Positions 5,501 to 29,489 of a stretch of DNA of 40,737 bases are shown in pieces. Position numbers and translations under genes: made by a program. Under the pieces are notes generated by a model, which was given only the letters and a program-made list of their open reading frames with translations, searched no databases and was not told where the DNA came from. This stretch comes from Geosiphon pyriformis uo1 (lineage: Eukaryota > Fungi > Glomeromycota). How positions within the stretch are numbered: position 1 is the stretch's first letter; the number at the start of each line of letters is the position of its first letter. The stretch lies in assembly GCA_016748015.1 (NCBI GenBank), contig JAAOMT010000578.1:56329-97065 (forward strand), in the 5' to 3' direction.

Positions 5501-8142
5501 TTTAGTGCTATTTTTAGATCTATACTAGTGTGCAAATAAAATTTCAATCAGATAACAGTTTTTTTTAAATATCTAAAATTAAATTCTATATTAGTATTAT
5601 GTACATATTTTGACATAATATTCTTATTATTATTACTGAACCATTTGAGTTTCTGCTCTTGAGAGCACAATATATTGTTTGAGATTTTTGTCAGAGTTTG
5701 AATTATTATTGTTGTTATTATTATAATAAATAATATTAAAATTGTTATTGTTATTATTGTTAAAAACTAAATTATAATTAAATTTTGATTTTGATTCTAA
5801 AACACACTTGTTAATTGGTTTTTCTTCTTTGAAAATTAAATAGATCATGTATAAAAGTGAATTGTAAATAAAATTACAATTATTACAATATTTAAAGTCA
5901 CTAAAAATTAAACAATATTTACAAAGTTTAGTATTTAATTGTTCTAAATACTGCTTTTGCTTATTTTAAATAGGTGTTAGATCTTGGTAATGTTTGTAAA
6001 ATTGTTCTGGATTACTTAGAATGTTAAAAAAAATGTCTGAGTTCAGGATAAGAATAGTATTAATAGATTCTGGTAGATTGTTTTTAATTATCAATATTTT
6101 ATTGAATAAAATGGCTTTGACTTTGGTATTTGTTATTTTCTAGATCTTGTTTTTGTTATGTGAATAACAATCCAAATACAAGAGCACTTAGTTTTATATA
6201 ACATTAAAAGACATTTTTTAGCTTATTTAATTATTTATGGAAATTGTATATTGATACAAAGTATTGTACATTTCTTTTTAATTAGAAATATCATTCCATA
6301 TTTTTTTGTTAAATAATGTTTTTTCACAAGTAAAACATAATTTGTTGTCCTACTTTCCTTGTCATTTTGAATAACCAAAAAATTTTTTGTAATATAGTTT
6401 ACAATAATAGTAAATATGTGTTTAGTAGTTCTCTTTTGGTAAAATCTAAGCTCACATGAAAAAAAGTTTTTTTATAATCAATATATCTAAGACAAATATA
6501 AGATGGTTTTTTCTTTTGTTTTGATAAGTAAAGTACATACCAACTGTTGGGCTGTTTTTTTAGTAATAGTAGTGTTTTGTGAGTTTTTTTTTTTCTTTTT
6601 TTTTTCTTTTTCTTTTGTTGTTTCAAGAAAGTATTGGTGACAGTTTATTGTGCTCTTTTTTGGCCCATGAAACTTGACAAACTTTTCAAATAATTTGTTT
6701 ATTTCTTTCTTAAATTCAATCAATGGTTGTAATTGGGTTGTTTTGAAATGACCACAGATAACTGGTATTTAAGTATACTAACTATTTTAACTAAGCTGTA
6801 GCTTTTGTGTAGTTCAGTTAAGTATTATATTAGTCTTGAACAGCCAGTTATTACCAATAAAAGCTTGGTATTGTGTGATTTTTATGACTAAAACTTTGAT
6901 TAATACAATGATATTATTGACTTTAAATAAAAAGTCATCAATTTTATTAATAAAAGTTTTTGTTATTCTATTAGCTATAATGATTTTAGCACTGGCAGTT
7001 TGATCAACTCAGCAACCTAATTGGTCTATAAGTTATTGTGTAATAATACTGTTTATTGATCTACTATCAAGAATTAGCTTGATAAATTGGTTATTAACTT
7101 TAGTATTCATATATATAGCAGTAATCAGTTTAATATTAAGAATAGTTCTACTAAAAAAAGATGTTGTTAAGAATTTTTCTAATTTAAAAAAAAAAATAGC
7201 TGCAAGTAACTTGTTTTTAATAACTATTGTTAGTAGAATATTATTGAAAAATGGTTGTTTTAGCTGTTCTGATTTGTTGAATTGAGTGTTTTTTGGGATA
7301 ACTAAGAGATTTAAATAGTTTTGGGAATTCGAGTTTTAGATGTACTTATTTTCTGAATTTTTTGAACATAATTTTAATGCTTAATTTATAAAACTAGAAA
7401 TTGGTTGGTGCATAATCATTGCCAATTTTTAGTTTTGTTGTGTGTATATGATTTTTAGTTGTTATTTAAGCTAAGTTTTGTGGCAGTATTTAAATTGATT
7501 GAGATTAATATATTACTTATGGCTATGATTAATAGATTATCAGTGCTGAAATTTGATAAACTGGAAGTATATATATAAGTTGTTGTATTATTTGGGAGTA
7601 ATATAATTAATATAAATATAATTCTAATAATAAATTGTTGATATAATTCTGGGTTTTAAACTTGCAATCAGAGTTTTAATATTGATTTTCTAATTATTGG
7701 TTATTAAATTTGAAGTAACAATCTGCTTTTAAATAGCTTTGTTTATTACAATAATAACAATTATGTATTTTTTGTTGTCATAGTTGATTTAATAATAACA
7801 ATAATAGATGTGATGAATTTTAGAAGTGATTGGAGTTTTCTGAATTGTTATAATATTAAAAAGACTGATAAATTGCTTGATTTTTAACTAAGTATTTTTT
7901 TAATTTCTAATTAATAAAGTCACTGAATTGTTTCAGCTTAGAATCTAATTCAGATGATTTGTTTATTATTAAATTTATGGCTTGAATGTAATTGGCTTCA
8001 AGTTTGACCAATTCAAAATCTTAAGCATATATAACTATATTTTAGAAAATATTTAGGTGTATTGAATGTACTTATTGTAACAAACTGCTACTTAATTCAT
8101 AAATAAATTAATTTAAAATCTGTAATACTGTAAAGTAACCAG
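2537..8142 (-). pseudogene. Element C polyprotein remnant: C-terminal Gag, protease, Cys-rich region, dUTPase, RT, RNase H (split by solo LTR 4143-4995)
   Basis: Minus strand reads VIVYFDNINIFS near 3310-3345 (decayed YLDD motif) and dUTPase-like sequence at about 5200-5600. RNase H ends ...RQI-TAA at 2539-2537. Colinear with A. Confidence 0.87.
4143..4995 (-). mobile_element. Solo LTR (853 bp) of the A/C family inserted between dUTPase and RT of element C
   Basis: Minus strand starts TGTTACTCATAG and ends TGTAATA. 4-bp TSD ATGT at 4139-4142 and 4996-4999. Removing it restores AKNHKHIKTSIYN, homologous to A AKNHNHIKIPIYN. Confidence 0.93.
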
Positions 8143-9005
8143 TGTTACTTATAGAAATATAGAAAATATATTAGCATAATTATTAGCCAATCAGAAGTAG
8201 ATGTAGTAAATGTGAAATTCCAGAATTTGTTTTAGAAATTGCAGGATTCTAGAAATTACAGGATTCTTACACAAGAAATTGCAGAATTCCAAAATTCTAG
8301 GATTTCTCTCAAAGAAATCGCAGGATTCCAGAAATTCTAAGACTCTTATTGTGAAGAATCGAGAAATTGAAGAATCTCAATTATGTATATATAGCAGTAG
8401 TATTAAAAGCTGAAAATACAGACCTCTCAGTTTAGATTTGATCTAAACAACCTTCTAAACCACAATAAATAACTATTTATTATTTCAAACTCACTTCTAC
8501 TATCAACTCTTCATGTTAATAGTAATTAATACTTAACAACACTAAAACAATAGCTCTTGATTATGGCTATTGACAAGATACTAATTTGCAATTCGCTTTG
8601 GCTTAATTTTTTACATTTCTTTATTTTCTTTATTTTTTTCTTTGATTTTGTTATTGTATACTAATTGATTAAAGGTTAAAAGTGCTGAGTTATTAATGTC
8701 ATGATAGTCTGGTAAAAGATCCAGAAATAAGGATAGAATTATATATATTATTGGATAGCTTACTAAAAGGACATGACTGCCAGAATAAATCCAGCCACCA
8801 AGCTAAAAAAAAAATTGAGAAACAACTTACAGAAAAACTGCAAATACCATCAACAAAAAATCTCTGTCCATTATACAAAGGACTCATTTGAAAAAACCTT
8901 CAGATACCAATTACTTAAAACTATTATCAATAATGTGAATAGCTTTTAAGCACCAAGTTACAGGTTTGTTATTTGACCTAAGACCCCAAATAATCATTTG
9001 TAACA
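8143..9005 (+). repeat. Element A 5' LTR
   Basis: TGTTACTTATAG...TGTAACA; same length as, and colinear with, 25477-26339. Confidence 0.97.
8187..8469 (+). promoter_or_regulatory. LTR promoter and polyadenylation signals: CCAAT (8187-8191), tandem repeat block (about 8213-8343), TATATATA (8386-8393), AATAAA (8464-8469)
   Basis: Motifs are seen in the expected order. CCAAT, the repeat block and a TATA-like box recur in all five family LTRs in the window. Function is inferred from standard LTR architecture. Confidence 0.6.
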
Positions 9006-9024
9006 TTTAGTGCTCCCTGTAAGG
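9006..9024 (+). other. Primer binding site of element A (TTTAGTGCTCCCTGTAAGG, probably decayed from TTTGGTGCTCCCTG...)
   Basis: Lies immediately 3' of the LTR. Element C keeps TGG at this position (complement of tRNA CCA). The cognate tRNA was not identified. Confidence 0.75.
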
Positions 9025-9064
9025 TATAATTCTACAGAGAACCAGCACCAACACAAAGCTAAAA

Positions 9065-12000
9065 GTGGCAGAATCAGAAAACATAGAAGCAAACCATTTA
9101 GAATTTGCAAAATTTTTATTTCAACACTATTGTCAACACTTGAGATTAAACCACAATCATATATCTGCTGAATCAGCCTTTAACTTCTACATCAACGAAA
9201 AAATTGCCTATCTGTTGGGAATACCAGTAAATACTGAATTAGCAAGAGCAGTTTTTTACAGTGAATTAATTCAAAATACCAACCTGCCAACAAATTACAA
9301 TTTTGCCTCCATCATCACTGAGATCAACAAAAAAATTAAGCATCACACACAGCAAAGATATACAATTACATATGCTAGTAAAGGCAAAGGAAAACTACAA
9401 ACACCAGCAGTAATACCTAAAAGGATACAACCACCTATTTAGAAGAAAACAAGAGTTAAATCCTTAACTAATCCATCATATCACTATATACCTGAAAGTA
9501 CTATTAATATTACATCTACAGGCGTATTCACATCAAATGTGACATTAGCATTTGGAAGATTTCTATTTCAAAGTAAACAAAGGAAAACAGACTTATTAGG
9601 ACCATATGGCAAATATTTTGAAAGATTTAACTCGCAATCACCAATTCCATCAGGCTTCTGATCATCACCACTGCCACCAGATTTCAGAATTTCTGATCTG
9701 TGGGAAGTGATGGAATCAAAAAAAGAGAAAGAAAAAGAATCTGAGGAACAAGAATTTACTTACCAGAACCTGATCACTGAAAACCCGGAAGTTGAAACCC
9801 TGAATCTTCAAACTCAGCAAAATTTAAATCTAGAAAATTCAGAAATCAAAACTCCGAATCATCAAAGGCAAAACAATCCAAACTCTGAATTAATTAATCA
9901 GCAAAACTTACCTCTGATAATTGTCATCAATCAACCACCAATTAATCCAATAGCCAAACCCATACAGCAGCCACTTCAACTACCACTCCAACAACCAGTA
10001 CAACAACAACTGCTTCAACAGCCATCACAACAACCCAACTTAGATTCAATGGCCTACACACCAATTGCCAAACTTGACAACTTTACCGGCAAAGAAAACA
10101 ATGCTCAAGTATGGCTGAATAATATAGAAAAGGCCATCATAGCCAACGAATGGAATAACACCCAAGCAATACAAGCCATTCCCTACTTTTTCAAGAATAC
10201 CACTAATTCATGGTATCAGAGCTTAAATAATAAACCACAAGATTTCAATGCCTTTAAAGTGGAATTCCTAAGATACTTTAGCAACAATAACAGCATCAAT
10301 CACCTAGTCAATGTGTTCACTACCATGAAACAAGAAAAAACTGAAGCAATCACTACTTATCTGAGACACTTCTATTGAAATCTGCGCCAAATTTAAGCAA
10401 TTGATGCCAACTATTTCACAGTACTACAGATCTTCAACCAGCTTATCCATGGTCTGCACAGCAGTATTTTGCAATATATACGTCTGTTACATCCAGGTAC
10501 ACTTCAAGACGCAGTTACACATGCCAGAAATTTTGAATCTGCTGAGTCAGAGGCCAACCATGCCCAAGCTGTTAATCTAGTGATGAATAGATTATCTGAA
10601 TTGGATTCCAAATTGGAGAAGTTCAGTGAATCAATTAATAAGAAATTGGAAGGATACTTAGCTGACAATCACACCATTTATTAGTCTCCACAACAACGCA
10701 ATAATTAAGGAAACTCTAATTGTGCCCAAAATCAACCATGTCCATCTTTATTGACCAATCAACAATGGCAACAGGAAACATGTATCTGTCACTATTGTGG
10801 TAAACAAAAACATATTCAAATCAACTGCTACCAATGTTTAAATAACTAACGATCGGGAAATCAATATCGAAACCCCAATCACTGGTTCTCAACTCCGAAT
10901 CATCAATCAAACTCAGCACAATATCAAACCATTTACCTACCAATGACACAATAATCAATCTATCAACCACCAGTATATCAACCTCCAATTTATCAAAACC
11001 CAACAATTTATTCACTGCAGCCACAAGTAATCTATCAGCCACTGTCTCAAGTGATCTATCAACTCCAACAAATTCAAACACCACCCCAAAACTCAGCTAC
11101 TATGACATCAGGAAACCCAAGACCTAGAATCACTCAAAACTGGAGATTGGCAATGGTTGTTCACCAACCAATCCCCAACTCTTCTCATTAACCAGCTGAA
11201 TTATGCTCTCGGAATTTAAGTACCAGTCCCACCCAAAACCTGAATTCTCAGAACTATTTAAGTCTTCTGGTCATCCCAGAAAACGCTACCTCCAACAAAA
11301 CAGAATTCAATCAGCAAACAACACTCACCAATATTCTCCCAGCAATGATTACTGAAAATGAAGCTCTGGACATCATCTTTTCCTTCGAATTCGAGGAACT
11401 CTCAGCCACGCCATTATTTAGTGAAGCTGCATTGAAAGAGAAGCCTATCACAGTCATGTATATTGATGCGAAAGTTGATGGTCACCCCATCAAACTGATT
11501 CTCAACAGTGGTTCAGCAAGCAGTATTATTACACGGCAACTCATAGATCAATTAAGTCACCAAGTTGACTGAGCTGCCAGTGCAAAGATTATAACAGCCG
11601 ATGGAGCCACCAAAACTCCTATTGGTGAGATTAACAACTTCCCATTTGAAGTCAATGGTATCATCATTCTCATCAAAGTCTTGGTAATGGAAGCAACGCA
11701 ATATCAGGCATTAGTGGACAATGACTGGTTATCTAAAACCAATACAACACTGAATTGGACCACTCAGGAACTCCAACTCAGCCAAAATAGCCAACACACA
11801 TGAGTACTGGCAACGTGTGGCCATTTTAAACCTAATAATGTCATGTTATTAGCACCACTTATTGATTTTAAGGAGGAAAAACTAAAGCCTACTTGAGAGG
11901 CATACTAAGTATCATGAGCCAACGTTGAGCACAATGAGCTACCACCAATTCTAAACTGGGAAAAAAAGAACAATGTAAAGGGAAAAAGAAAAAAAACAAA

Positions 12001-15000
12001 AGAACATACCTGGGAGATTACTATTGACACTTAGAACAATGACAACAAAAACAAATCAACACCAACAAGCTGGGAAGAAAAAAGAAAGAGAAAAAAAGAA
12101 GACTTACCTGAAGAAACTAACAAAATCACCAAGAAAATAACCAGTGGCTGGGAAAGAAAATACTTACATGAGTCAGTAAAGAAGCCACCTTACATTTTCT
12201 TAAAATGTCAGGACTATAAGAAGAAATTCTCTTCCATAGAAGCATGGATCGCACCTGACAAAGACTACTGGACGAGAACCCACTATTATTGCAAACCATG
12301 TGATAGAGAATGCTATGACTACCCAAAACAACAAAGCAAGTGGGACAATGAACTATGTCTTACTTGTGGCAAACAGTTACTTGACAAAAGAATGTGGAAT
12401 GACATTCCTAGTCAGGGAGGAACATGTGACACTTCATGCCAATACACAATCCTCATTAGCGATTGGGTAAGTTATGGCATGTCAATAACAGCCGCCTGGC
12501 ACCGAGCAATCTCTCGCTTAGAAGGTTATCCACACAACAAAGATGAAATCTGGCAAATGGCTAATGCCAAAGTAGAAGAAACTATGTCCAGCAAAATCCT
12601 GAAAATTAAAAACAACCTGCCTAAACAGGTTGACATCATTCTGATCCCCAATCCAGATGCTTTCCTCAACATTGAAACCAACCCAGAAGACTTTCACAAG
12701 CATTACCAAAATCTGGTACCCACAAGAGAAGAACAAAAAGAGCATTTAGCACAGCTAAACACTTAACTATGTGACCACTGTTTGATTCCATGTGACTTTC
12801 AGTATTGTAATGAGTGTGACCTTATTTACAATCCACCATCATGCATGATCTACACGATCCCAGAAGAAATCAAACCAATCAGCAATTGTGTATCGGAATC
12901 AGAATCAATTTTCAATCCCGATTCAAACTCCAATAACGATGACAACAATAGTTCTAGCTCAGTTCAATATGGCAATGAAATTAACTCAAATTTAGACTCT
13001 AATCCCAATTACAAACAATACATTGCCTTATCAGATCTTTCAAAAGAACAAGAGTTGAAATGGTACAGTAACAATGATAAAAGTATTATGCTAGAATGTG
13101 CACATGATATTGATGCTGGATTTGATCTGAGGTATTCAGGAAAAGATGCCATAAAATTGGAACCACATTTGCACACCTGCATTAATCTCAAAATAGCATT
13201 GGAAATTCTAACAACAACCATGGTTCAACTAGCATTTAGGAATAGTTTAGCAAAAAAAAGAATAAATATCAGAGGAGGAATAATTGATACTGAATATGTG
13301 GGAAATATCATGGCAATGCTACAAAATGACTCAGAAAAGACCTATATTATAAAGCCAAACAAAAAGATAGCACAGGCAATATTCCTACCTTTGGTTAAGA
13401 TAGCTCAGTTAGTGTCAGTAGAAAATAGAGAGGAATTAGAAATAACAGCAAGAGGAATTCAGGGATTTGGATCTACAGGTAAAATAGATGTACTGGTTAA
13501 TATGATAGAAGAAAAAACTATTGGCCAAGAAAAATTTATCTCAATCGGTCAAGCAATTTCTATTCTACCATATGACCAGTACATAATAGTGATAGAAAGA
13601 AAGGTGAAAAATCAAGCACAGATTTTTGAAGCAGAAGCAAGTCTTTGTAAATCAGAAGGGATTGGACTCATCAATCTTGACATACCAGCCAAAAACCATA
13701 ATCACATTAAAATTCCCATTTACAACAATACAGGGAATGTTGTAGAGATACCAGAAGGAACCACCATCAGATATTTAACCACAGAAATAGAAGACCAGCC
13801 ACCAAACACTGTACCAGACTTTCTACAGCTGTGCGAATATGTTGACATTACTTCACAAACCATATACGAATGAAATGAATGTTATTTGCTCTAACCAGAA
13901 TAATTGGAACAAATAAACATGAGAAACTTAGACCCACTTTAACATATGCAGCTCAAGATGTTGCTCAGCAATTTTAACAACATGTTTGCCAGCAAAAATG
14001 AATTTGGTCACACTGACATCATCCAACACCAAATCAAGACTGAAGATGCAATGCCAATTTAACAAAAAACATACAGAGTACCACCAGTCAGTCATGAGAT
14101 CATCTGTTAAGAAATCAATTGAATGCTTGACAATAGGCTAATTCAGCCATTAATAAGCTCATGGTCATCACCAGTGATACTTATCTGTAAAAAGAATGAA
14201 AAGATCCACTTCTGTGTGGATTATAGAAAGCTCAATGGAGTAACTCGTAAAAACAGCTATTTGACTCCACGAATTCAAGAGTTATTTGATGCTTTCAGTG
14301 GAAACAAATGGTTCTCAACATTGGATCTAAACAATGATTACTGACAAGTAGCCATGGATCCAGCAGACAAAGAAAAGACAGCTTTTATAACAAAAGAAGG
14401 GAATTTTGAATTTGAAGTGATGTCATTTGGCTTAACCAACACCCCAGCCACCTTTCAATAGCTTATGAAAATTGTTTACACCAGCTTATTGTGAAAATCA
14501 GTAGTCGTATACTTAGACAACACCAATGTATTCTCAAGGATGTTTGATGATTATTTCCATCATCTACAACAAGTATTTGAAAGACTTCAGCAAGCAGAAC
14601 TAAAGTTAAATGCCACAAAATGCTTTTTCGGAAAAACAGAATTGAAATTCTTAGGACATATAGTCAGCAAAAATGGCATAAAAACAGATCCAGAAAAGAT
14701 AGAGATAGTAAAGAACTTTCCAGTACTCACCAATGTGATAGAACTAAAATTATTCTTGGGATTTGCAAGCTATTATTGTCACTTCATCAAAGATTTTTCT
14801 AAAATAGCTTAGCCACTCAATTATCTTCAAACCAAGAATGTAAAATATGAATGGACTGAAATCCAGCAAGAAGCTTTTAACATTTTAAGAAGAAAGCTCA
14901 TCCAAGCTTTAGTATTGATCTATCCATATTACAGCAAACCATTCATCATTACTACTGATGTATCAGGTCAAGCATTGAGAGCAGTACTATCTCAGAGAGG

Positions 15001-15313
15001 ATCAGATAAAAGAGAACATTCAGTTGCATATGCCAGCTGAGGATTAACACCAGCCAAAAAGAATTATGGAACACCAGAATTAGAACATTTAGCAATTTAT
15101 TGGGCAGTCATGAAATGGAAAAAATACTTGAGCCAGAAATTTGAGGTGTATACAGATTACAAGGGATTGACATCACTCCAAAAACAAGAATTTGGAGATG
15201 GCAGACAATCAAGATGAAAAATGGCACTCTCACTATATACTTATATTATATATTATAAAAAAGAAAAAAACAATGGAAATGCTGATGGTTTGTCATGAAT
15301 GAGACAAATTTAA
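9065..15313 (+). pseudogene. Element A gag-pro-dUTPase-RT-RNase H polyprotein (about 2080 codons, single frame, broken by point-mutation stops)
   Basis: ORF pieces 9065, 9707, 10469, 11345, 12392, 12782, 14123 and 14540 are all in the same frame. Capsid-like MAYTPIAKLDNFTG from 10049; CHYCGKQKHIQINC knuckle 10787-10828; protease LILNSGS (decayed DSG); RT VVVYLDN; RNase H TTDVS..ELEHLA..YTDY..NADGLS. Confidence 0.95.
13085..13480 (+). other. dUTPase domain inside the element A polyprotein
   Basis: All five trimeric dUTPase motifs are recognisable: AGFDL, (S)RNS, GGIIDTEYVG, KIAQAIF, RGIQGFGSTG. Confidence 0.95.
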
Positions 15314-15374
15314 TAACATTTCAATCCAAAAATATAACAAAACCAAACCAAATCCAACGAAAATATAACAAAAA

Positions 15375-17292
15375 ATGAACATACAAAAATATTAACAACT
15401 CAAACATTATATAGATACTCAACAGTTCAAGAAGAAATTATCTTAATCAGAACGCAATAGTATCAAACAACAATCAAAATACTTTATTACTTATCAAAAT
15501 ATACTTTATCGGAAGAATAAAAAAAATCTAGATCAACCAACCAAAGTAGTTACAGAGCCAGAAAAAGAAACAATTTTATACAACATGCACTCAAATCCAA
15601 CAGCGGGACATTTCCACAAAGAAGCAACCATGGAAAGAACCAGAAAAAAATACTATTGGCCATCAATATATTCAGACATCATCCAATATGTTCAAAATTG
15701 TGATGCTTGTCAAAGAAAAAGAGGAACAAGACCAAGTGAATTGTTAAGACCAATCAAAGTAGGACAACCATTTGATCACATTGGAATTGACTTAGTCAGA
15801 CCATTAACAATTACCAGCAGAGGAAACAGATATATTACAGTAGCCATGGACTATCTCACTAAATGGCCAAAAGCAAAAGCAATTTAAAGAGTGGATGCAG
15901 AATCCATTGCCAAATTCATTCATCAAGATTTGATTTGTCGACATGAATGTCCAAAAGAACTATTATCAGACCAAAGAACTCATTTTGTGAATAGAACATT
16001 GGCAGAATTGAGCCAAAGATTCGAAATTAAGAGACCACTATTATCACCCTACCATCCACAAACAAACAGTCTAGTTAAAAGATTTAACAGAACATTGTGT
16101 AAAGCAATCACTAAGATCAGCTAAGGAAACCAAAATGAATGAGATTTATTCATACCATCAGTACTATTTGCTTATCGGACAATAAAACAAGATACTACAT
16201 AAGCAACACTATTTGAATTAGTGTATGGAAGAACAACAACATTACCAGTAGAGAGAAAAATTAATACATATTTAGCTGAACCAATAACAGAAGAGAATTT
16301 TCAAGAAACATTGTTAAGAAGAACATATAACTTAATAGAAACATTGGAAAACAAATGAAAAAGAGCAGCTGATAATATTTAAAAGTCACAAGAGAAACAG
16401 ATAGAAAGACATGATAGTCAACTACCAAACAAACTAGTTGAATTCAAGATTGAAGACAAAATACTCTTACATTATACCAAAGTAGAAAAACAATGGAGTA
16501 GAAAATTCGACCCCAAATGGGATAGACCATTTCACATAGAAAAAATTTTAGGAAATGAAGCTTACAAATTAAGACTGGACAACAAAATTTTAACCAAAGC
16601 AGCACATGGAAATTGACTGAAACCATACCACAACACCACACCACTATCCACCAGTAATATTTTACAATTAAAAGTACAGAGAATACTAGTCCAACCAGAT
16701 GAGATTCCACAAAATCTGGAATCAATCATTATTATTGACAACAACACGTTAAATTGATCCATTAAAAGAATATATAAAGACATGGTAGATGTGATAGAAA
16801 ATATCAGAAAAATGGAAATTACAGACAACATTCACTTATTAGCACAACAACTCTTTCAATTGATCCAACACCAAGAAATGGAAATTACAATCAATTAATA
16901 AACCATTCAATATCAAGATACTAGAAAGACATTACAACACAGAAAACAGAAGAAATCAGAAAATACCATCGACAAAATTATTGCAAAAATAAAATTGGCA
17001 ATAAAAGAATTGACAAAAGAGTCAATATACCAAGAGTTGATTAAAGAAACTTGGAATTGATGGATACAACAATTTCTAAGAAACTATTGTTATTTTTACT
17101 TGAAACAACACGTGAATATTCAGAACTTATATATGGATAAAACAAAGCAGTTATTTGACACAACAATACTACAACAACTAAAACATTTTGTGGGAAAAAA
17201 CAACTTATTTACATAAGCTCAAGCTATATACCGAATACACACAGTATTTCAGGATCGACCAGAAATCTTACTCAACAAAGCAATGGATACGG
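15375..17292 (+). pseudogene. Element A integrase ORF, part 1 (own ATG; HHCC, DDE core, GPY/F, long C-terminal extension), interrupted by element B
   Basis: HSNPTAGH...CDAC; IGIDLV, LLSDQRTHF, NSLVKRFNRTL (E decayed to K); KWDRPFHI GPY/F-like. The frame is constant from 15375 to the B insertion. Confidence 0.93.
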
Positions 17293-18142
17293 TGTTATGG
17301 TTTAAAAATTTAGCAAAAGAATCATAAAAATAATATAAACTATTTAATCATAATATAGCACAGTAATAATCTTAGAAAAATAATGATTAACATAGTAGCA
17401 AACACCATCTTGTAATAATGGCAAGCACCAGTTCACAATAGCAGTTAACACCAACTGATGATAGCAGCAAACACCAGATTGAAATATCAAAAAAAAAGTA
17501 TTACAATATGTTTTCTTGTAGAACTACAAACATATATATATACAGTAGCTTTAATATTAAGAAAAGTCAATCAAGTAATAAAAATCATAACTTATTAAGC
17601 AATAGATCCAATTTATTTAACAAACTCCACTTTAAAATCGTACTTTTAAATCAAAAAAAAATGAAAAAAAATATTTAAAACTGAATTATCACAACTCCAA
17701 AGTAGTAAGAAACTCACTTGTATTATTTATTAAATGAAACTATCATTCATCAGCTGAATTCCTTGGAAGAATAATCTCTGATCAAGATTATTCATGTTGT
17801 TACTAATTAATAAAAGCTTTATTGTAAGAATTAGAAAAAATGCCAAAGGCCATTAATATTTCATGTTTCTAGATTAGAGAAACACATTAGACAATTGCAA
17901 GGATAGCCTCAGAGAAGACCCCAAACAGTGGGTAGATTTCAGTTTAGCCTCTGAAAAGGAGTACATAAACACACACAATAATCAGGAATTGAGAAATAAC
18001 TTACATTGTAACATTAAAGAGAAAGCCTTCAATATAACAGTGACATTATCACACAAATAGAATTGAAGAATTCATGAGAGACTGATTGTAATTAAAACAG
18101 GATATCGGCAATTAAATATACCAAGAAAACCATTCCGTAACA
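17293..18142 (+). repeat. Element B 5' LTR
   Basis: Direct repeat of 24461-25310 with identical length. Confidence 0.97.
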
Positions 18143-18160
18143 TTTAGTGAACCCTACAAA
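18143..18160 (+). other. Primer binding site of element B (TTTAGTGAACCCTAC..., probably decayed TTTGGTGAACCC)
   Basis: Position directly after the LTR and same TTT(G/A)GTG start as A and C; the remainder differs from A. Confidence 0.6.
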
Positions 18161-18224
18161 GAAAGAAAATCAAAAAGGAAATAATAATTAACAATAATTC
18201 ATTGCTAAAAAGGAAGAGACAAAA

Positions 18225-21200
18225 GTGGTAACAAAAACCCCTAATCATACTGTTCTTGAATTCTGCTGTGCTATTTACACACAAAATCAAAGTAATCTTG
18301 GATTACCAGAAGGATGTTGTCCAGCAGAATCTGCTCTTACTTATTATATCAATGCCAAAATAAATTATTATATAGGAAAAGAAGAAGAACCACATGACAC
18401 AAAACTTGGATTGTATAGAGATTTATCACAATACACTACAAAAAAAGTAGCAGTAATAGCCACAATTATTGTCAAAATCCATTGAGAAATTGAGCAATAC
18501 GCCAACGAAAATTTTCTAATATCCACAGGAAACACTAGAGAACACACCAACAAAACCAAAGAAAATTTAGAAACTAATCAGGAAAGTAATCAGCAAAAAC
18601 TAGGAACACTTGCTCAAACACCAAAGAAAACTGTCACTTAATCAATAAAAAAACAACGTATTTATTCACCAAAAAATAAATCATATTATTTTTCACCAGA
18701 AAATAAGATACAGATTCCATTAGGAGCTGCATCATTATCAATATCAACTCCACAAATGCCAAGAACTTCTAATTATACTGATAAAATTAAACAATATAAC
18801 TGGGGAGACATACCAATTACAGAAGGATATTCATCACTATTCTAAAACCCTCTTTTTTAGCCAAAATTTGAAACGGGGTTTGAAAACCATGAAGAGGAGT
18901 CTGAATTGGAATCCGAAAAAGAGACCAGCAAAAAAACAATTACAAGACTAGTTACTGAAACAAGCAGCCAGTTCAGAAATCAAGAAACTCGTGATCAAGA
19001 AGAAGAACTGGATATAAAAGAAGCCATCTTTAAGAATGTTCAAGGAAATATCATCCCACCTTCTCTTAGACCAATAAACCCATTAGCAGAAAATGGCAAC
19101 AAAATGGCCACATCATATATTGCAAGACTAACAAATTTCTCAGAAGAAGAAGAAGAAACGGACATATACACGTGGCTCAGAGAAGTGCAAAAAACCATTC
19201 AGGCAAATAACTGGAACAACCAAAGAGCAATTTAAACATTACCTTTTTTCTTAAAAGGCACAGTCGACTTGTGATATCAAAGTCTGGAAACAAAACCCAC
19301 AAGCTTCACCAAATTTAAAAATGCACTCCTGGAGTATTTTAGTGATCTAAATGCTATAATCCAACTACAGAACAAATTCAACACTATCAAGCAAGGTATC
19401 AGTAAAACTGTTACCCAATACCTTGCTTGATTCAATTGAATTTGCCGTCAGATTGAAGTGATTGAACAAGGATACTACACTAATCTTTAGGTTCTAAATC
19501 AGTTTATTAGAGAATTAAAAAGCAGTATTTTAGGAAGAGTACACCCTGCCTACCCTAATTCCTTACCAGAAGCCATTACACTCGCCAAAGCTCTTGAATT
19601 GGCTGAGAAAGAAGCTAACCATAGTCAAATGGTTAACATGATAATGGAGGAAAATAAGACAGAAACATTAAAGAAAAGAGTAATGCAATTAGAGGAAGAA
19701 CTCTCTAAGAAAATAGAAAGTTACTTCATCCTAGATCCAAGAAGAAATACATACCAACCACCCCAAAAATGCAGCCAAGAAGTCAGCAACAGTCGAAATA
19801 ATTGCTCATCATGCCAGAAATTCAGAACAGAAACGTGCACCTGCCATTTTTGCAAATGCATAGGACATTTGATTAGTCAATGTTGAATGTGAATGATGCA
19901 GGAAGCATGCAAAAATAATTATTACATGCTACCCCAAATGCTCAGAAACCAGTACATGCCAATACCACACCAATATCCCACTATGTATCAAAATCAAGAA
20001 ACTTACCAACAACAGTCCATAATAGCCAACCCAAATTGGTGTTCCAAGCCCCGAAATCAGCCCATGTAAAACCAGAATGCGTTGGTTCAGAGGAATCCAA
20101 ACTGTGCTGGAACCAGTCAGCAAACCAATCCAAACTACCAAAATTATCAACAAACTTACCTTAATATACCAGAAAATCTGATCATTAGAAACAATGACAA
20201 TAGAAACATAAACAAAACCAAAAATTCCTCCAACAAATTGAGCCAAACAATACTACCAGCAGTTACTACTGAAAATAGCAGCCTCGCAGCTATTTTTCCT
20301 TTTAAATTAGAGGAAAACGAGACTATGTTCAGTAGAGCAGCATTGGACAAAAAACGCCCAATCACTGCTATATATACAGAAGCCACTGTAAACAATACCC
20401 CAATTAAACTTATCTTAGATAACGAATCCACTAAAAGCATTGTAATGCTTCAACTAGTAAACCAACTGGGTTTCAAAGTTGATCGTGCTGCAATGTCCTA
20501 AATTATAACAGTTGATAGAAGTACAAAGCTGCCTTATGGCAAAATCAACTCATTTTTTTTTAAAATTAACAGCATAGTAATATTTACAAAAGTATTAGTA
20601 ATGGACACTACACAATATCAAGCATTAGTAGGGAATAACTGGCTAACAAAAGCCAACACCACCTTAGACTGGACCACCCAAGAGCTTCTGATCAATTATA
20701 ATGGCCACCAGGCCAGAATTCCAGCCACCTGTGGCCACTTCCAAAAACCCAGCATCAACTAAAGACTTACCTTCGAATTTAAGGAAAATCCAGCACTACC
20801 AGCCATTAAAACCTATCAACTCTTTTGGGCTGATGACCAAAGAACAGGACTACCAGCTGTACCAACGTGGATCAGCAAAGAAAAATCTAAATGGAACCAG
20901 ATAAGTCTACAAAGAAACCACCAGTAACACAGACCAAAGCTAGAATGCTCAGTTTGCAAGAAAAAACTTTTGTCTATAATAGCGTGCAGCACACCAGATA
21001 AAGACCCAAGAAATCTCACCCACTACTATTGTAACTATTGTAACAAAGAAAAATACAGTTATCCAGAAAGACACGGAAAATGGAATGAGAAACCATGCTT
21101 CACTTGTGGAGAACTATTACCAAGAGGGTGTAACTAAAATGACATATCAGGCAGAGGAGAAACGTGTAACACAACTTGCCAATGCACAATCCTCATCTAT

Positions 21201-23935
21201 AACTGGGTAAGAGAAGGAACGCCATTTGAAGCAGTGTTCAACAGAGCATTAAAAAGACTATAGCACTACTCACACAATAAGGACGAGTTGTACAACACTG
21301 CACAGACCAAAGTAAAAGGAAGAACTGCCGAAGAAATATGACATTGAAAAGAGTCAGCTGAAGTAGCCAACGAAGTCACTAGCTACAACATGTTCGACCC
21401 AGTGGACGAATTTCAGAACTACTACCAACAACTATGCCCTATTCAATAAGAGCAAGAACAATACCTCGCCCAAATCAACATTTACTTTTGTAAAAACTAT
21501 CTTATCTCATGCCAAAATCAGTGCTGTGAAGAGTGTCAAGACAAAAGGGACTTAGAAAAAAAAATGGAAATTGAGAATTAACAGTCTCAAAATCAATCAA
21601 TAAATCAACAAGACTTACCTGATGGTCCTGAGTCAGAAAAATTTGTAGCCTATACTGACCTAGAACAGATAATTGATATTCAATACTTTGACAATGGGCA
21701 CTTAGGAATAATACCCAAAAGAGTCCATCCAACTGACACTGGATTCGATCTACATTATCTTGAAGACAAATCCACAACATTACCACCCAGGAGCATCACC
21801 AAAATCAACCTGAAAATAGTGGTTGAAATTCTACCAGGAATAATAATTCAAATAGTGTCGCAATCAAGCCTCGCGAAAAAAGGAATAAGTGTTCAAAGAG
21901 GAGTAATTGACTCTGAATACACTGGAAATTTGATGGTTTTGCTACAAAACAATTCAGAAAAGCCTTATACCATTGAATCTAAGGAAAAAATTGCACAAAC
22001 AATTTTTCTACTATTGGTAAAAATTGGGAAATTTGTGCCAGTGAAAAATCGTGAGGAATTGTTACAAACAACAAGAAGAACTTTTGATTTCGGATTGACA
22101 GAAAAAGGGATTGAAGCAAATTTTGCTGAAACAATAGAGGAAAAAGGCAAAGTAATTAAAACTGAGTGGTCCATTACACTCCTATTATATCAAAAATCAG
22201 AAATAAGAATAAAAAAGACAATTAAAGAAAAAGACTTAATATTTGAGTCCTACCCAGAAACTTGCCAACAGTTTTTCATAGGACTTATTAACCTTTTTAT
22301 TCCAGCTAATAAAACTCAATAGATAAAAATTCCTATTACAAACACCACAAAAGAACCTGTCTGCATTCCAAAAGATACCATTATTGGATACCTTGAAACA
22401 GAGCTAGAAAATGCGTCAACACCACAAAAAATTCTAAATTTCCCAGAAATCACCCTCTATTGTGAACTCACTTCAATAAATTGGCAGCAACCATTGGAAT
22501 ACTATCAATTTATGCCAGAAAAATTGGCCAAATTAAACATTGAAACAATGGATCCTGATCAACAGTGACAATTAAAAGCATTAATTTTAAAATACTCTGA
22601 TATATTTTCACAAAATGATGAATTTAGAAGAACCAACTTGGTTCAACACCAAATCCCCACTGGAGATGCCAGACCTGAAAAACAACGTGCTTACTATATC
22701 CCACTAATGGAGCATAATTTTATCAGAGAAAAGTCTAAAGCATGTTGGAAAAAGGAATAATCTAACCATTAATGAGTTTATGGTCCTCACCAGTTGTTTT
22801 AGTAAAGAAAAAGAACAGAAAAATTAGATTTTGCATCAACTATCACAAATTAAACAGCAAAACAACCAAAGACTCATACCCAATACTGTTAATTGACAAA
22901 ATCTTTGACATTTTTGGAGAAGCAAAATGGTTTTCTACACTTGACTTGACCAGTGAGTACTGGCAAGTAGAAATGGACCCAAAGAACAGGCATAAAACAG
23001 CATTTACAACACAAAATGGCAATTATGAGTTCAATATAATGCCATTTGGATTGACAAACACTCTTGTGACATTCCAAAGACTAATAGACATAATTTACTT
23101 CAGAATCCTGTGCCAATCTATTGTTGTCTACTTGGATGATACAAATGTTTTCTTGTCAAAATTCACGGATTATCTCTAACATTTGCAACAAGTTTTTGAG
23201 AGATTGAGACACGCTGGACTTAAACTAAATCTAGAAAAATGTTTTTTTGGGAAAAATAAGCTAGCATTTTTAGGATATGTAGTTGAAAAAGATGGAATAA
23301 AACCAGATCCATCAAAAATAAACAAAGTAAAAAATTTCCCAGTACCTCAAAACATTTCAAAAGTTAGAAGCTTTTTAGAACTCGCATCTTACTACTGCTG
23401 CTTTGTAGAAAACTTTTCAAGCATTGTCAAACCTCTTAATTACCTATTATCCAAAAATATGAAATTTGAATAGACTAAAGCACAACAAAAAGCTTTTGAG
23501 TACCTTAGACAAAACCTCATTGAATTACCAATAATAATCTATCTGAATTTCAACAAGAAATTCATTTTGGCCACAGATGTCTCTAGAACTGGATTTGGAG
23601 CCATTCTGTCACAAAAAGATGATAATAGAAGAGAACATGTAATCACTTATGCCAACAGAAGTCTTAGTATGACAGAGTAAAACTATGCAGCACACAAACT
23701 TGAATGCTTAGCAGTAGTCTGGAGTTGTGTTCACTTTGACACATATTTACAGTACCAATCCTTTGAGATTATTACAGATCATAGAGATCTGGTCTGGTTA
23801 AATAACAAAAAAGTGCTAAAAAGAAAATATGCCAGATGGTCACAAACGTTAGCACCATACAATTATATTATCAAATACAAAGAAGGTACCAAAAATGCTA
23901 ATGCTGACTGTTTGTCAAGAATAAGACATACATAA
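18225..23935 (+). pseudogene. Element B gag-pro-dUTPase-RT-RNase H polyprotein (many stops, one apparent 1-bp deletion near 22730)
   Basis: ORFs 18225, 18906, 19599, 20082 and 21819 share one frame; 22772 and 23183 are shifted by -1. CHFCKCIGHLISQC knuckle; LILDNES protease; TGFDL..GVIDSEYTG..KIAQ dUTPase; VVYLDDTNVF RT; NADCLSRIRHT-stop. Confidence 0.94.
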
Positions 23936-23964
23936 AAATCACCAACCCATCCACCACAACAACA

Positions 23965-24447
23965 ATGAACAACCACTTTTACAAAAACCTCAGCCAATAC
24001 TTGGAAACACTACAAATAGACAAAAAAATGCCAGTAAAAGAGCTAATTAAACTCCAAAAATTAGCAAAACACTATTTTATCCAAAATTACATATTTTATT
24101 ACCGGAATTGACAAAATCCAGATAATCCATTAAGAGTTATAACCATGGATGAAAAAAAAACTATCTTATTTAACATGTATTCAGATATTCATTCAGACCA
24201 CTTTAGAAAAACCAACACTATATTCCATTCAAAAACAGTTTACAGAATTTTCAAAGCATTTGAAAACTGTTACAAACTATTGTTGGACCCAACCATGAAC
24301 ATAATAACAACCAACAGTATTGAACAACTTACTAACTCGCAATTTCAAGAATTACAACAACAAATTAATAATACAGTATTAAACCACTATAGTAACTTAG
24401 AATTTAATGAAGAAATTAACTTCAATTTTGACAGAGCTCACTATTAA
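23965..24447 (+). pseudogene. Element B integrase ORF remnant: N-terminus fused in frame to the extreme C-terminal tail, catalytic core missing
   Basis: ATG at 23965; EKKTILFNMYSDIHSDHF matches A EKETILYNMHSNPTAGHF. It then jumps to VYRIFKAF...FQELQQQI...FDRAHY, matching A IYRIHTVF...FEELQTQI...FNGA*Y. Confidence 0.88.
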
Positions 24448-24460
24448 AAGAAGGGAATAA
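24446..24460 (+). other. Polypurine tract of element B
   Basis: AAAAGAAGGGAA-TAA directly before the 3' LTR TG. Confidence 0.85.
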
Positions 24461-25310
24461 TGTTATGGTTTAAGAATTTAGCAAAAGAATCATAAAAATA
24501 ATATAAACTATTCAATCATAATATAGTGCAGTAATAATCTTAGAAAGGTAATAATTAATATAGTAGCAAACACCATCTTGTGATAATGGCAAGCACCAGT
24601 TCACAATAGCAGCTAACACCAACTGGTGATAACAGCAAACACCAAGTTAAAATATCAAAAAGAAAGTATTACAATGTGTTTTCTCATAGAACTACAAACA
24701 TGTATATATACAGTAGCTTTAATATCGAGAAAAGTCAATCAAGTAATAAAAATCATAACTTATCAAGCAATAGATCCAATTTATCCAATAAACTCCACTT
24801 TAAAATTGTACCTTTAAATCAAAAAGAAATGAAAAAAAATATTTAAAACTGAATTATTACAACCCCAAAGTAGTAAAAAACTCACTTGTATTATTTATTG
24901 AATAAAACTATTATTTATCAGCTGAATCCCTTGGAAAAATAATCCCTGATCAAGATTATTTATGTTGTTACTAATTAATAAAAGCTTTATTGTGAGAATT
25001 AGGAAAAGCACCAAAGGTTATTAACATTCTGTGTTTCTAGATTAGAGAAACACATCAGGCAATTGCAAGGATAGCCTCAGAGAAGACCCCAGACAGTGGA
25101 TAGATTTTAGCTCAGCTTCTGAGAAGAAGTACATAAACACATACAACAATCAGGAATTGAGAAATAACTTACATTGTGACATTAAAAAGAAAGCCTTCAG
25201 TATAACAGTGACATTATTACACAAATAGAATTAAGGAACTCATGAGAGACTGATTGCAATTAAAATGGGATATTGGCAATTAAATATACTAAGAAAACCA
25301 TCCCATAACA
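24461..25310 (+). repeat. Element B 3' LTR
   Basis: Direct repeat of 17293-18142. Confidence 0.97.
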
Positions 25311-25314
25311 ACGG

Positions 25315-25463
25315 TTACCAATAATCAATTGGAAAAAATCACCAATGCTCAATTTGAAGAATTACAGACTCAAATAACACAGGTAATTCTCGAAAACAAA
25401 ATTCAAGAAATACTTCAAAAAAGAGAATTAAAAGAGTTGGATTTCAATGGAGCTTAATATTAA
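25315..25463 (+). pseudogene. Element A integrase ORF, part 2 (end of C-terminal extension)
   Basis: Joins in frame with 17292 (..AMDT-V-TNNQLEKITNAQFEELQTQI..) and stops at TAA 25461-25463, overlapping the PPT. Confidence 0.88.
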
Positions 25464-25476
25464 AAGGAAGAAATAA
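25462..25476 (+). other. Polypurine tract of element A
   Basis: AAAAGGAAGAAA-TAA directly before the 3' LTR TG; same layout as in B. Confidence 0.85.
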
Positions 25477-26339
25477 TGTTACTTATAGAAATATAGGAAA
25501 TATATTAGCATAATTATTAGCCAATCAGAAGTAGACGTAGTAAATGTGAAATTCTAGGATTCCTCTTAGGAATTGCAAGATTCTAGGAATTACAGAATTT
25601 TTACACAAGGAATTGCAGGATTTCAGAATTCCAGGATTCCTCTCAAAGAAATTGCAGGATTCCAGGAATTCCAAGACTCCTGTTATGAAGAATCGAGGAA
25701 TTGAGGAATCTCAATTATGTATATATAGCAGTAGTATTAGAAGCTGAAAATACAAACCTCTCAGTTTAGATTTGATCTAAACAACCTTCCAAACCACAAT
25801 AAATAACTATTTGTTATCTTAAACTTACTTCCACTATCAACTCTTCATGTTGATAATAATTAATACTTAACCACACTGGAACAATAGCTCTTAATTATGG
25901 CTATTGACAGGATACTAATTTGCAATTCGCCTTGACTTAATTTTTTACATTTCTTTATTTTTTTTATTTTTTTTTTTGATTTTATTATTGTATATTAATT
26001 GATTAAAGGTTAAAAGCACTGAGTTATTGACATTATGATAGTCTGATAAAAGACCCAAAAATAAGGATAGAATTATATATATTATTGGATAGCTTATCAG
26101 AAAAGCATGACTGCCAGAATAAATCTGGCCACCAAGCTGAGAAAGAAATTGGGAAACAACTTACAGGAAAACTGCAAATACTATTAACAAGAAATCTCTG
26201 TCCATTATACAAAAGACTCATTTGGAAAAATCTTCAGATATCAACTATTTAAAACTATTATCAACAATGCAAATAGCTTTTGAGCACCAAGTTATGGGTT
26301 TGTTATTTGATCTAAGACCCCAAATAATCACCTGTAACA
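25477..26339 (+). repeat. Element A 3' LTR
   Basis: Direct repeat of 8143-9005. Confidence 0.97.
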
Positions 26340-27599
26340 CCAGTATTAATTACTTAAATTTGGCATAAATTTCTGTAAAAATATTTTAAATAAGTAGTAA
26401 CTGCTTCTATATTACTTTATTTAATAGTAATAAAGCTAATTAACAAGCAATTTATGCTATTATTATTGCTAAAATACTGTAAAAATACAGTTTTAAACAT
26501 GTTGAAATCTTGAAGTTTGTTAACAAATTTTAGTACTATAAATTAGCAGTATTTTAGAAAAAGTACAAAATAGCTTAAAATGCTTTGGCATTATTCTATT
26601 CATTAGTTGTAATGATTTTTTTCATATCATTTAGCCATGTTTAAGTGTTGTTCTCTTTACCAGTGAATTTTTCTAATTTAGCAATTGGTACATATATTAT
26701 TTGTGTGAGTAATAAATATTGTTGTGATTGTTGTTAAGATTATTGTTAAAATTGTTGTTATTGTATAGCAATTAATGCAACTGGTGAATTGATTATAATC
26801 AACTGAAAATAAGTTTTGTTAAAAAATAGAAGTAAGGTTTAGATTGTTCAGGTTTTACAGAGTTTAAACAATTGGAGTTTGTATTTCTGGGTTATCTAAG
26901 ATTAGATTTTAATAATTACTTTCTTAATTATTATCTTTTTTTTCTTTTGATTTAGTTTTTTTTCAAAAACTAGTAGATTCGAAATTTGGTTGAAATGGCA
27001 GTAATCAAAGTCTTAATAGTATTGTTAATTGTGATTTAAATCCTTCAAAGTAATTACTTTACATTTTTAATAATTTGTTTTTTTTTTGTTTATTTTAAAA
27101 TAGTATTCTTGCTAATAATGTTTTTGCAACTGTTATAAATGTGATTGCTAATGTTATGTAGATAATACTTTTAAGTGTATAGTAATATGATAAGTTAATA
27201 AATAAATAACTCTTGGTTTTTTCTAAGTAGACAATTGTATTTTCTTTGATTTTTCTGTTGAAATTTGTAATTTTACTTTTTTTTGTTTGCAAAAGTAATA
27301 AAAAAATTTTGTTGGATGTATTTTTTAATTTTTCTGTTTATTTTTATAATTAGTAGTGCAAACAGATAGTTTAATAAAAATGTAGTGCTTTGTAATAATT
27401 TATTATAAAAATTCTTAAAAGTGGCTTTTAGATTTCTTTGGTCTCTCAAGTAGTATACAATTTTTTTGTTAACATAACAATTAAAAGCTGATTTTGTTGG
27501 CCAATTATTACTGGTCAGTTCAAAATAAGTTTAATTGTGTCAGAATAAAGCTTTTGCAAATTTTAAGTAGTTTGTTTCTATTATTTCTGATTCTGCCAC
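26340..27599 (-). pseudogene. Element C Gag N-terminal part
   Basis: Minus strand AAAAGTGGCAGAATCAGAA at 27603-27585 matches the start of A. PIAKLEKFTG capsid start near 26660-26700. Rejoins 8142 across the CCAG TSD. Confidence 0.87.
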
Positions 27600-27663
27600 T
27601 TTTCTGAATAATTGCTGTTAACACTAGTTTTCTGTTAAATTATATCTTACAAAGAACACCAAA

Positions 27664-28512
27664 TATTACAAATAATTATTTGGAATGTTCAAACAAATAA
27701 TAAACTTATAACTTAATGCTTAATAGCTGAAAATATTGGTAATTTTTGAAGATTTTGGAATCTAAAAGTTTTGGTTAAGTTCTTTAAATAATAAACAGAA
27801 ATTCAATTAATAATTTCTTTTGTAAATTTTTTTTTTAGCATAATAACCAGTTTATTTTAGCAATCATGTTCTTTTAATAAGCTATTCTTAAATTTTTTAC
27901 CTTTGTTTTCAGGTTTTTTATTATGTTATTTTTGATGTTAATTACTTAGTACTTAATTTTTTTAATTAATTAATAAACAACAAAAAAATAAAATAAAATA
28001 AAATAAAAAAATTAAGAAAAAAAAAATAAAAAATTAGTATCTTATTAATAGTTATAATTAAAAACTATTGTTTTAGTATAGTTAAGTATTAAAGTTTATT
28101 AATATGAGTTATTAATAATAGAAAAGTAATTAATATTTTTAATTAAATAACAATAATATAGATTGGATAATAATTAAATATTTTATTAATATTAATATAA
28201 TTTCACTTTAAGTCATAGAAAACTATCTTTTAAAAGAAGAAGTATAAAATAAGTAGTTATTACTAGCTATTGTTCTATTTAAATTGAATATTTTTTCTGT
28301 TTTTAATACTTTTATTATATATACATAATTCATATTATACAAGATTTCTTAAAATTTTTCAATTTTTTAACAAAAATTCTGAAATTTTTTAAGAAGAATT
28401 CTGAAATTCTATAATTCTTTAAGAGAAATTCTGAAATTTTTTTTTTTACTACATTTATTTTTGATTGGCTATTTTATCTACTTATTATAATTTTTAACTT
28501 TAATGAATAATA
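27664..28512 (-). repeat. Element C 5' LTR (about 849 bp, strongly decayed)
   Basis: Same ordered motifs as the A LTR on the minus strand; followed by PBS and gag. The outer boundary at 28512 is inferred from the decayed terminus tattattcat. Confidence 0.85.
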
Positions 28513-28549
28513 TTAGCTATTGACTAATCCAAATTCATATAAGAATATA

Positions 28550-29030
28550 TGTACATACTTTTAATGTAATTCTATAATCTTTTAATATTTTAAAAAATCT
28601 GTTTACAATATTTATTCTATTATGTTGTTCATTTATTAATCTAAAATCAATTATTGTTTATTGAAGATCCCAATTGTCATTAATATAATGAGCAATAATA
28701 AAAACAAAGATTTGTTATTAAAAAATATCCAAAAATTTAATATAAAGAATATTTTGGCCTTGATAATATCTAAATATATCTATTATATTATAAGTATGAA
28801 TAAAAAAAAAAGACATTTTATAATAAAAATACTATTTACTTTTAATTTTTGTCTATTCAAAACATAGAATTCTATGACTCTATTTTTAATTGTATTAGCA
28901 CAAACAAGTTAAAAAGTAAAATTCAAATATTAAAATATATCAATTAATTCAAAGTTTTTTACTATAAGAAATAGTTGTTGGCAGTTAATAAGCCAAATAA
29001 TAATTATGTTATAAAGTTTTTTATTATTAA
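28550..29030 (-). pseudogene. hAT-superfamily transposase remnant, apparently intron-containing
   Basis: Minus strand reads IIIWLINCQQLFLIVKNFELIDIF...CANTIKNRV, then IAHYINDNWDLQ*TIIDFRLINEQHNRINIV..FFKILKDYRI. These resemble hAT/ZBED P-F-x-x-VE and TAHYID..W...H-T-G-x-N-I motifs after C>T/G>A decay. Confidence 0.7.
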
Positions 29031-29489
29031 TATCAATAGTAATTATTATGAAAAACTAGAGCAGTTTTCTAATTAAATTGGCCAAAAATTATTAAATAAA
29101 ATAACAATTTTATTTGTTAAAACATTTCTTCAATTAACTTGTAATTTTTCTGAATATTTTGTTTTTTTTTATGATATTTTTCTATTATAACATATACTGT
29201 TTAATAAAAAGTTTTTAAATAATGTTATAAAAATTTGGTAGTGTTCATAATTCTACAAAAAAATGGTTTATGTACACATTTTGAGACTGTATATTTAGCT
29301 GGTTTTTTTTGTTTACTTAAACTTATTAAAATAGTCTTATATATACTTTAAAAACTACTAAATATATTAATATTTGGATTATTTAGATTATTAAATTTCA
29401 TTATTTCAGATTTTGAATCTTTAGTAATATTAAATAATATTAACAATGAATTTATTTTGGTAAGTTGAAGAGTAGAATTATTATATATT

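Follow-up and report, generated by a model that had tools for sequence, protein, structure and literature searches.

The window analysed here, a stretch of 40,737 nucleotides from contig JAAOMT010000578.1 of Geosiphon pyriformis uo1, a fungus related to mycorrhizal fungi and placed in the Glomeromycotina and, broadly defined, in the Archaeosporales, is a stack of Ty3/Gypsy long terminal repeat (LTR) retrotransposons in which one element (B, positions 17293-25310) lies inside the integrase region of another (A, 8143-26339), itself inserted into older minus-strand copies of its own family. The assignment to Ty3/Gypsy follows the TG...CA LTRs, the target duplications, and the order gag, reverse transcriptase (RT), RNase H and integrase; gag, dUTPase, RT, and integrase domains were all found. 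The mutational signature that these elements carry is real, strong, and well controlled, and it occurs in a lineage for which none has been reported. The change runs from C:G to T:A, on both strands and after insertion, and takes in all four CpN contexts; it is spread over 120 copies of the family, and one gene family is relatively spared. The mechanism set out below is a proposal.

LTR divergence and its sequence context

The two LTRs of one element are identical when it inserts. Both pairs in the window have TG...CA ends and are flanked by matching 4-bp target duplications, so each pair derives from one insertion and the differences within it postdate that event. All of these features lie on the forward strand: A is bounded by CCAG (8139-8142, with the same four bases at 26340-26343) and has its LTRs at 8143-9005 and 25477-26339, and B is bounded by ACGG (17289-17292 and 25311-25314) with LTRs at 17293-18142 and 24461-25310. 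The A pair aligns 863 to 863 bp without gaps and differs at 87 sites, by 85 transitions and 2 transversions, and the B pair (850 to 850 bp) differs at 77 sites by transitions only. Jointly, 164 of 1713 sites differ in gap-free alignments, 162 of them by transition, which gives a transition/transversion ratio (Ts/Tv) of 81. Two or fewer transversions among 164 differences would have a probability of 5e-18 at Ts/Tv 3 and of 6e-6 at Ts/Tv 9. An earlier sequence-only reading of the window had noted the equal lengths within each pair, which the alignments confirm; its hand counts, 26 differences with one transversion in the first 230 bp of the A pair and 22 with none in the first 275 bp of the B pair, prove exact.

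The differences are balanced between C/T and G/A (78 vs 84, p = 0.69), indicating that both strands are affected. The Kimura two-parameter (K2P) distance between paired LTRs is 0.106, with 0.0012 transversions per site. Clustering is absent, with 77 of 158 adjacent pairs of changes on the same strand (null 78.3) and 30 close pairs (null 34.1). T/A alleles are commoner in the 5′ LTRs than in the 3′ LTRs of both elements (95 vs 67, p = 0.034), at 50 of the 85 transition sites in A and at 45 of 77 in B.

When C/G is treated as the ancestral state, the LTRs show rates by 3′ base of 0.75 for CG (27/36), 0.36 for CC (39/108), 0.24 for CA (51/210), and 0.21 for CT (43/204). CpG is the context with the highest rate, yet 83% of the changes lie outside it (CpA accounts for 32% and CpG for 17%), and half of the changes fall at CC and CT sites, which cannot be CpGs in disguise. 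At non-CpG sites the 5′ base has a marked effect (p = 3e-5): TC sites differ most often (67/188, 0.36), followed by CC (28/101), AC (29/146), and GC (9/87, 0.10). A simulated uniform C>T rate returned 0.30 ± 0.04 in every context, so the sparing of GpC is real and no artefact of the method. Altogether 133 of 522 non-CpG C:G sites differ; per site, this exceeds the rate of transversions by a factor of 218 (95% lower bound 60). The proposal of a broad-context cytosine mutation acting after insertion is supported.

Passive decay confined to CpG has its expectation borne out in so far as CpG is depleted in the elements (observed/expected ratio, o/e, 0.06-0.24 overall) and kept at 40200-40737 (o/e 1.06), but the excess of transitions is not limited to CpG. 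The sequence-only reading had set its proposal against CpG deamination combined with a neutral AT bias, and in simulation that combination fails to account for the spectrum: CpG decay together with neutral change, set to a level of 2 transversions, yields about 24 transitions, vs the 162 observed, and an AT-biased neutral process with C>T at 5 times the transversion rate yields about 109 transversions.

Direction of change and decay of older copies

Since an LTR pair by itself cannot separate C-to-T from T-to-C, the direction was taken from other copies. Contigs of run X1, which may stem from the sample that the window came from, gave 10,619 pieces on the 5′ LTR of A, with transitions at 182 of 222 variable places. 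From the 230 rows of this comparison 40 were listed and 31 used; the nine omitted include one outside the LTR and position 8857, an LTR difference without a G count in its row. Fifteen of the 31 rows fall at sites where the LTRs of the pair differ, and the majority allele there is C/G at 13 of the 15.

Protein copies of the dUTPase region of A point the same way. The open reading frame (ORF) used (12767-13873, forward strand) contains the dUTPase domain at 13085-13480 (Pfam PF00692, E 5e-21), and a protein search with it gave 654 matches; all 120 of those listed are from Geosiphon pyriformis, with identity reaching 87% in the best match. Of the 5103 residues in these 120 copies that depart from the majority of their column, 3652 are of the C>T/G>A type, in a set that includes divergence from before insertion and hides changes to stop codons. 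With the window codons serving as context, C>T has a per-site rate of 0.126, T>C one of 0.012, and the individual transversion classes 0.0025-0.005 each; C>T-type changes outnumber all other kinds together in 120 of 120 copies. Transitions alone could account for each of the 41 residues at which the ORF of the window and the copy closest to it differ. In 101 nearest-neighbour pairs, 4510 of 5004 differences are of this transition-only kind, with 30/30, 30/30, and 28/29 in the closest pairs; as the database is clustered at 90%, no weight is given to the absence of pairs closer than 11.5%. The 5′ preference recurs in the protein set (TC 0.16, GC 0.09), and the 3′ context outside CpG is flat (0.118-0.134). 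Ordinary divergence is present too: transversion-type changes are the leading kind (122 of 300) among rare distinct changes seen in one or two copies, as expected where C>T changes arise repeatedly and are thus counted with the common ones (234 of 356).

The coding consequences are extensive. The single gag-protease-dUTPase-RT-RNase H frame of A (9023-15296, forward strand) has 29 stop codons in 9023-15290, that is over 6.27 kb (12 TGA, 12 TAA, and 5 TAG), and no frame shift; more than 20 premature stops had been claimed. At positions conserved in intact relatives, the stops stand in place of tryptophan (three TGA sites), arginine, or glutamine. The integrase region of A (15447-17292, forward strand; PF17921, E 9e-20) occupies a separate frame, is interrupted by the insertion of B, and has 12 stops, some late ones of which may fall beyond the natural end. 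Decay by frameshift was rejected as the origin of this frame change: the intact related element L001 has the same layout (window 15270-15460; L001 9708-9731), and the separate integrase frame behind a stop after RNase H is thus a natural split. The interior of B (18143-24460, forward strand), with gag, dUTPase (about 21708-22061), RT (22766-23179), and RNase H, has 28 stops counted in two frames and one apparent frameshift near 22740; this frame change just before RT is absent from A and is probably a one-base indel. The assertion that A was damaged without net frameshift accordingly holds.

Older copies of the family of A occupy 81-7984 on the minus strand, are colinear with A piecewise at 64-75% identity, and have 19-23% GC, with 12.6% in the lowest 500-bp window. 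Their colinearity was described correctly in the sequence-only reading, and the description of them as nearly pure A/T was overstated. About half of the C/G sites of A are T/A in these copies, and C/G in A opposite T/A in the old copy exceeds the reverse 3.2- to 4.7-fold in six of seven aligned pieces and 1.75-fold in the seventh. By 5′ base, the old copy has T/A at 41-59% of non-CpG C:G sites (TC 0.59, GC 0.41). Downstream, 26345-38970 is older decayed DNA with 19% GC, CpG o/e 0.1, and GpC o/e 1.59, part of which (26345-28510) aligns to the family of A on the minus strand. Across the old DNA, GpC o/e is 1.28-1.59 and TpC o/e is 0.88-0.91.

Several other features of the elements were observed. 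The dUTPase lies between the gag/protease region and RT in both A and B; an element-encoded dUTPase would protect cDNA from uracil, and not from change after insertion. The ACGG duplication of B is centred on CG, and the CCAG of A could be a decayed CCGG. Within the LTR of A, 8205-8340 is a series of short, degenerate repeats (GGAATTGCAGGATT-like) at which contig joints skip 41-85 bases, indicating that unit copy number varies within the family.

RIP-type loci and a spared gene family

How repeat-induced point mutation (RIP) behaves was taken from a metagenome scan of 80 loci, 37 of which, from contigs of classical RIP composition, served as RIP-type controls, by composition only. Their 54 gap-free direct-repeat pairs differ by 1141 transitions and 37 transversions (Ts/Tv 31), with rates of 0.40 for CA, 0.24 for CG, and 0.04 for each of CC and CT, and GpC is disfavoured there too. 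The window equals these controls in strength and differs from them in context: its CC (0.36) and CT (0.21) rates are 5-9 times theirs, as expected from the earlier claim that the context is unlike CpA-type RIP. The criterion for the RIP indices is a TpA/ApT value above that of (CpA+TpG)/(ApC+GpT). The two values are 0.73 vs 1.48 in A, 0.87 vs 1.33 in B, and 1.0 vs 1.16 in the old copies, compared with about 1.7 vs 0.6 in the control loci. The elements share with the RID-dependent RIP of Neurospora crassa and other Pezizomycotina changes in repeats that go almost only from C:G to T:A, LTR pairs without gaps, a Ts/Tv of at least 30, the death of elements by stop codons, and AT-rich relics. They differ in that there is no CpA preference and the RIP indices are negative. 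The outcome is RIP-like, but with these two defining tests failed it cannot be filed as RIP.

At the end of the window a coiled-coil ORF (40374-40736, forward strand) belongs to a multicopy Geosiphon gene family and is not hypermutated. Its treatment as a single-copy gene was rejected on account of 13 paralogues, and it serves only as a non-transposon control; its 12 named relatives are all from Geosiphon pyriformis. The ORF has G/C at 34 of 65 two-fold synonymous sites, whereas A has it at 313 of 945 (p = 0.003); CpG o/e is about 1 in the ORF. Divergence within the 14-member family (165 of 1079 residues) is similar to that of the transposon set (5103 of 34845), whereas the share of C>T-type changes is 43 of 165 vs 3652 of 5103 and that of E>K plus D>N is 19 of 309 vs 961 of 4859 (p = 6e-11). 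The paralogues differ largely by transversion-type changes. The relative sparing of this one multicopy coding family argues against a genome-wide bias and is in keeping with the claimed, possible focus on repeats. Members of the family have been found only in Geosiphon, and the paralogues look like mosaics of shared blocks, which suggests gene conversion or shuffling.

Related elements show the effect to different degrees. The nearest named relatives of L001 are mostly glomeromycete proteins, at 55-59% identity. Among related Ty3 elements in the metagenome, one group (L002, L003, L010, L012), in which CT is spared, shows an excess outside CpG, with 67 changes of C>T against 15 of T>C and 9 transversions, and a second (L016, L017, L018) has 29 C>T, 24 T>C, and 4 transversions, again with a non-CpG C>T excess. 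The sparing of CT in the first group raises the possibility that context differs by host. Milder relatives have Ts/Tv of 4.6 (L005/L008), 5.7 (L004/L006), and 1.5-2.6 (L027/L030/L066); in the last of these C>T reaches 0.052 per site with matching transversions, and thus the raw C>T rate alone is not diagnostic.

Candidate mechanisms and significance

The best explanation, to which we give about an even chance, is all-context methylation of the DIM-2 type combined with an enzyme-accelerated conversion of C to T in transposons. Elements would be packed in heterochromatin, where DNMT1 would keep CpG methylated and so produce the CpG peak, and a non-CG enzyme of the DIM-2 class would mark the remaining cytosines with a flanking bias of TpC over GpC. 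Enzyme-coupled deamination, left unrepaired, would then fix the C-to-T change much faster than spontaneous decay could. Some 13-15% of C:G pairs per copy would be changed in this way, TGG, CGA, CAA, and CAG becoming stops and the element being killed, and continued action would drive old copies to about 20% GC. We infer the involvement of a cytosine methyltransferase from what is recorded in relatives. One DNMT1 and two DIM2 genes, with no DNMT4/RID or DNMT5, are tabulated for Rhizophagus irregularis in PMC12344493. In the same species 32.5-49.5% of cytosines are given as methylated (PMC8298701), which in a genome below 30% GC would need non-CG methylation; methylome accounts for arbuscular mycorrhizal fungi (AMF) report CpG only (PMC8647823; PMC13443276). 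According to PMC11315935, DIM2 methylates CG and non-CG sites, with a flanking preference described there as unknown, and a review assigns all CpN to it, with CpT preferred (PMC13297926). Methylation at both CG and CHH is described for the transposons of Phycomyces, in which DIM2 and DNMT1 are present (PMC11258239).

Several points weigh against this proposal. The changes form no clusters or same-strand runs such as a processive enzyme would leave, although the RIP-type controls are also without runs (495 of 1033 adjacent pairs on the same strand, null 523), so the strand-run test separates nothing. The transversion baseline of the LTR comparison is 2 events only, and the context spectrum of A against the old copies is flatter than that of the LTRs. 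The control that is spared consists of a single coding family, subject to selection and made up of short genes with mosaic blocks, in which E>K is still the commonest change (14 of 260). The DIM-2 link is borrowed from Rhizophagus and not taken from Geosiphon itself. Finally, the Dim2 of Zymoseptoria tritici, a mitotic C-to-T mutator in repeats for which PMC8016269 gives >95% C-to-T and >98% CpA, spares CpG, while in the window CpG has the highest rate and those of CA, CC, and CT resemble each other. The two systems do share C-to-T change in methylated repeats, and the Zymoseptoria system, of which DIM2 genes in a glomeromycete provide a counterpart, is reported to need no sexual cycle.

Other known systems resemble the window in part. 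The meiotic C-to-T hypermutation of Trichoderma reesei is likewise linked to methyltransferases, being dim2/rid1/dimX-dependent with dim2 as the main contributor, but is described as tied to sexual development and as reaching non-repeat regions (PMC11381340). The TpCpG hypermutation of Pucciniomycotina (PMC3318451) and the CpG decay linked to Masc2/DNMT1 (PMC4352252) have in common with the window a CpG peak, a 5′ T preference, and a position outside the classical RIP clade; they are CpG-bound, in contrast to the window.

A purely passive process, in which dense all-context methylation of repeats is followed by spontaneous and poorly repaired deamination of 5-methylcytosine (5mC) over time in slowly dividing nuclei, would dispense with a mutator and is unlikely. 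It would fit the unclustered, strand-symmetric changes, the very high 5mC of R. irregularis, the place of CpG as the top context, and the fall of CpG o/e, which is 0.55 in the intact L001, 0.23 in A, and 0.06-0.1 in the old copies. However, change at non-CpG sites is at least 60 times as fast as transversion, and in plant LTR pairs with CG, CHG, and CHH methylation, where a raised Ts/Tv is ascribed to 5mC deamination, the values given are 0.85 in poplar and 5.16 in mangrove (10.1101/263830), vs 81 in the window.

We regard as quite improbable a relaxed-context form of true RIP, in which a RID-type enzyme mutates paired repeats before meiosis and sexual cycles would be implied. The intensity and lack of gaps seen in the window equal those of the RIP-type control pairs, and AMF are said to have all five DNMT types including RID in PMC8298701, citing Bewick 2019. 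That count conflicts with the zero DNMT4/RID tabulated for R. irregularis, and the CpA preference of the controls, with their low CC and CT rates, is missing from the window. Moreover, the 14-copy gene family is spared despite blocks identical over about 60 residues, although its genes may be too short for RIP, and the 41.2% of the Geosiphon genome given as LTR sequence (PMC11952901) indicates that such a defence did not stop expansion.

A genome-wide C-to-T bias, for example through lost uracil excision, with genes seeming spared through selection alone, would agree with the low GC of the whole window; it is very unlikely given the synonymous-site composition and CpG content of the coiled-coil ORF and the transversion-type differences among its paralogues. 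An APOBEC/AID-like deaminase preferring TpC and attacking integrated transposons would suit the favoured TpC context found in three datasets, but the preference is mild (0.36 vs 0.10-0.28), GpC is disfavoured in the RIP-type controls as well, and the changes have neither the clusters nor the strand coordination, or the one-strand G-to-A pattern, expected of APOBEC3-type editing, which leaves this reading scarcely probable. Editing during reverse transcription is ruled out: the two LTRs of an element differ, and C/T and G/A both occur. An artefact of DNA damage, amplification, or assembly is barely credible, for even though the 120 proteins and run X1 may share source material with the window, the burden is greater in the older elements of the nest, the gene adjoining the repeats escapes it, the X1 contigs represent many distinct copies with the same transition excess, and related metagenome elements also have a non-CpG C>T excess.

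A kingdom-wide screen describes RIP-like defences as sharing a CpA preference and as confined to a few ascomycete clades, and scores 7 of 7 Glomeromycetes as no_rip (PMC12543289); Geosiphon was not found in the 12 of its 19 supplement files that were searched, the species table included. No RIP signature is recorded for Gigaspora, as cited in PMC8647823. Our literature search, which covered subscription journals thinly and had the Geosiphon genome paper outside its scope, returned no description of such hypermutation in Geosiphon or AMF. The suggestion of an undescribed genome-defence process stays speculative. The signature is real in a lineage without reported RIP, but methyltransferase-linked C-to-T mutation of repeats is known in ascomycetes, from Dim2 in Zymoseptoria and dim2/rid1 in Trichoderma. 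It is more likely a new variant of that ascomycete mutagenesis, in a lineage scored as RIP-free.

An important consequence concerns the dating of insertions, which the sequence-only reading had expected to be inflated. With K2P at 0.106 and transversions at 0.0012 per site this expectation is supported, and LTR ages are likely overestimated 15- to 45-fold at a neutral Ts/Tv of 1-5, or by a factor of about 4 or more if the transversion count is set at its upper bound. More broadly, and tentatively, Glomeromycotina and perhaps Mucoromycota widely may possess their own active transposon-killing mutator: enzyme-driven, acting on C to T in all contexts with a TpC bias and at RIP strength, independent of RID and possibly of sex. 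Such a mutator would be invisible to CpA-based indices and k-mer screens, and would explain AT-rich repeats and bursts of insertion that look old. A process of RIP strength and flat context would expose a blind spot of RIP indices and screens, and would push repeat-directed mutagenesis back beyond Dikarya. If it is premeiotic, it would preserve in the genome a trace of sex, in a lineage that has long been considered asexual; if vegetative, it would be a defence that needs no sex.

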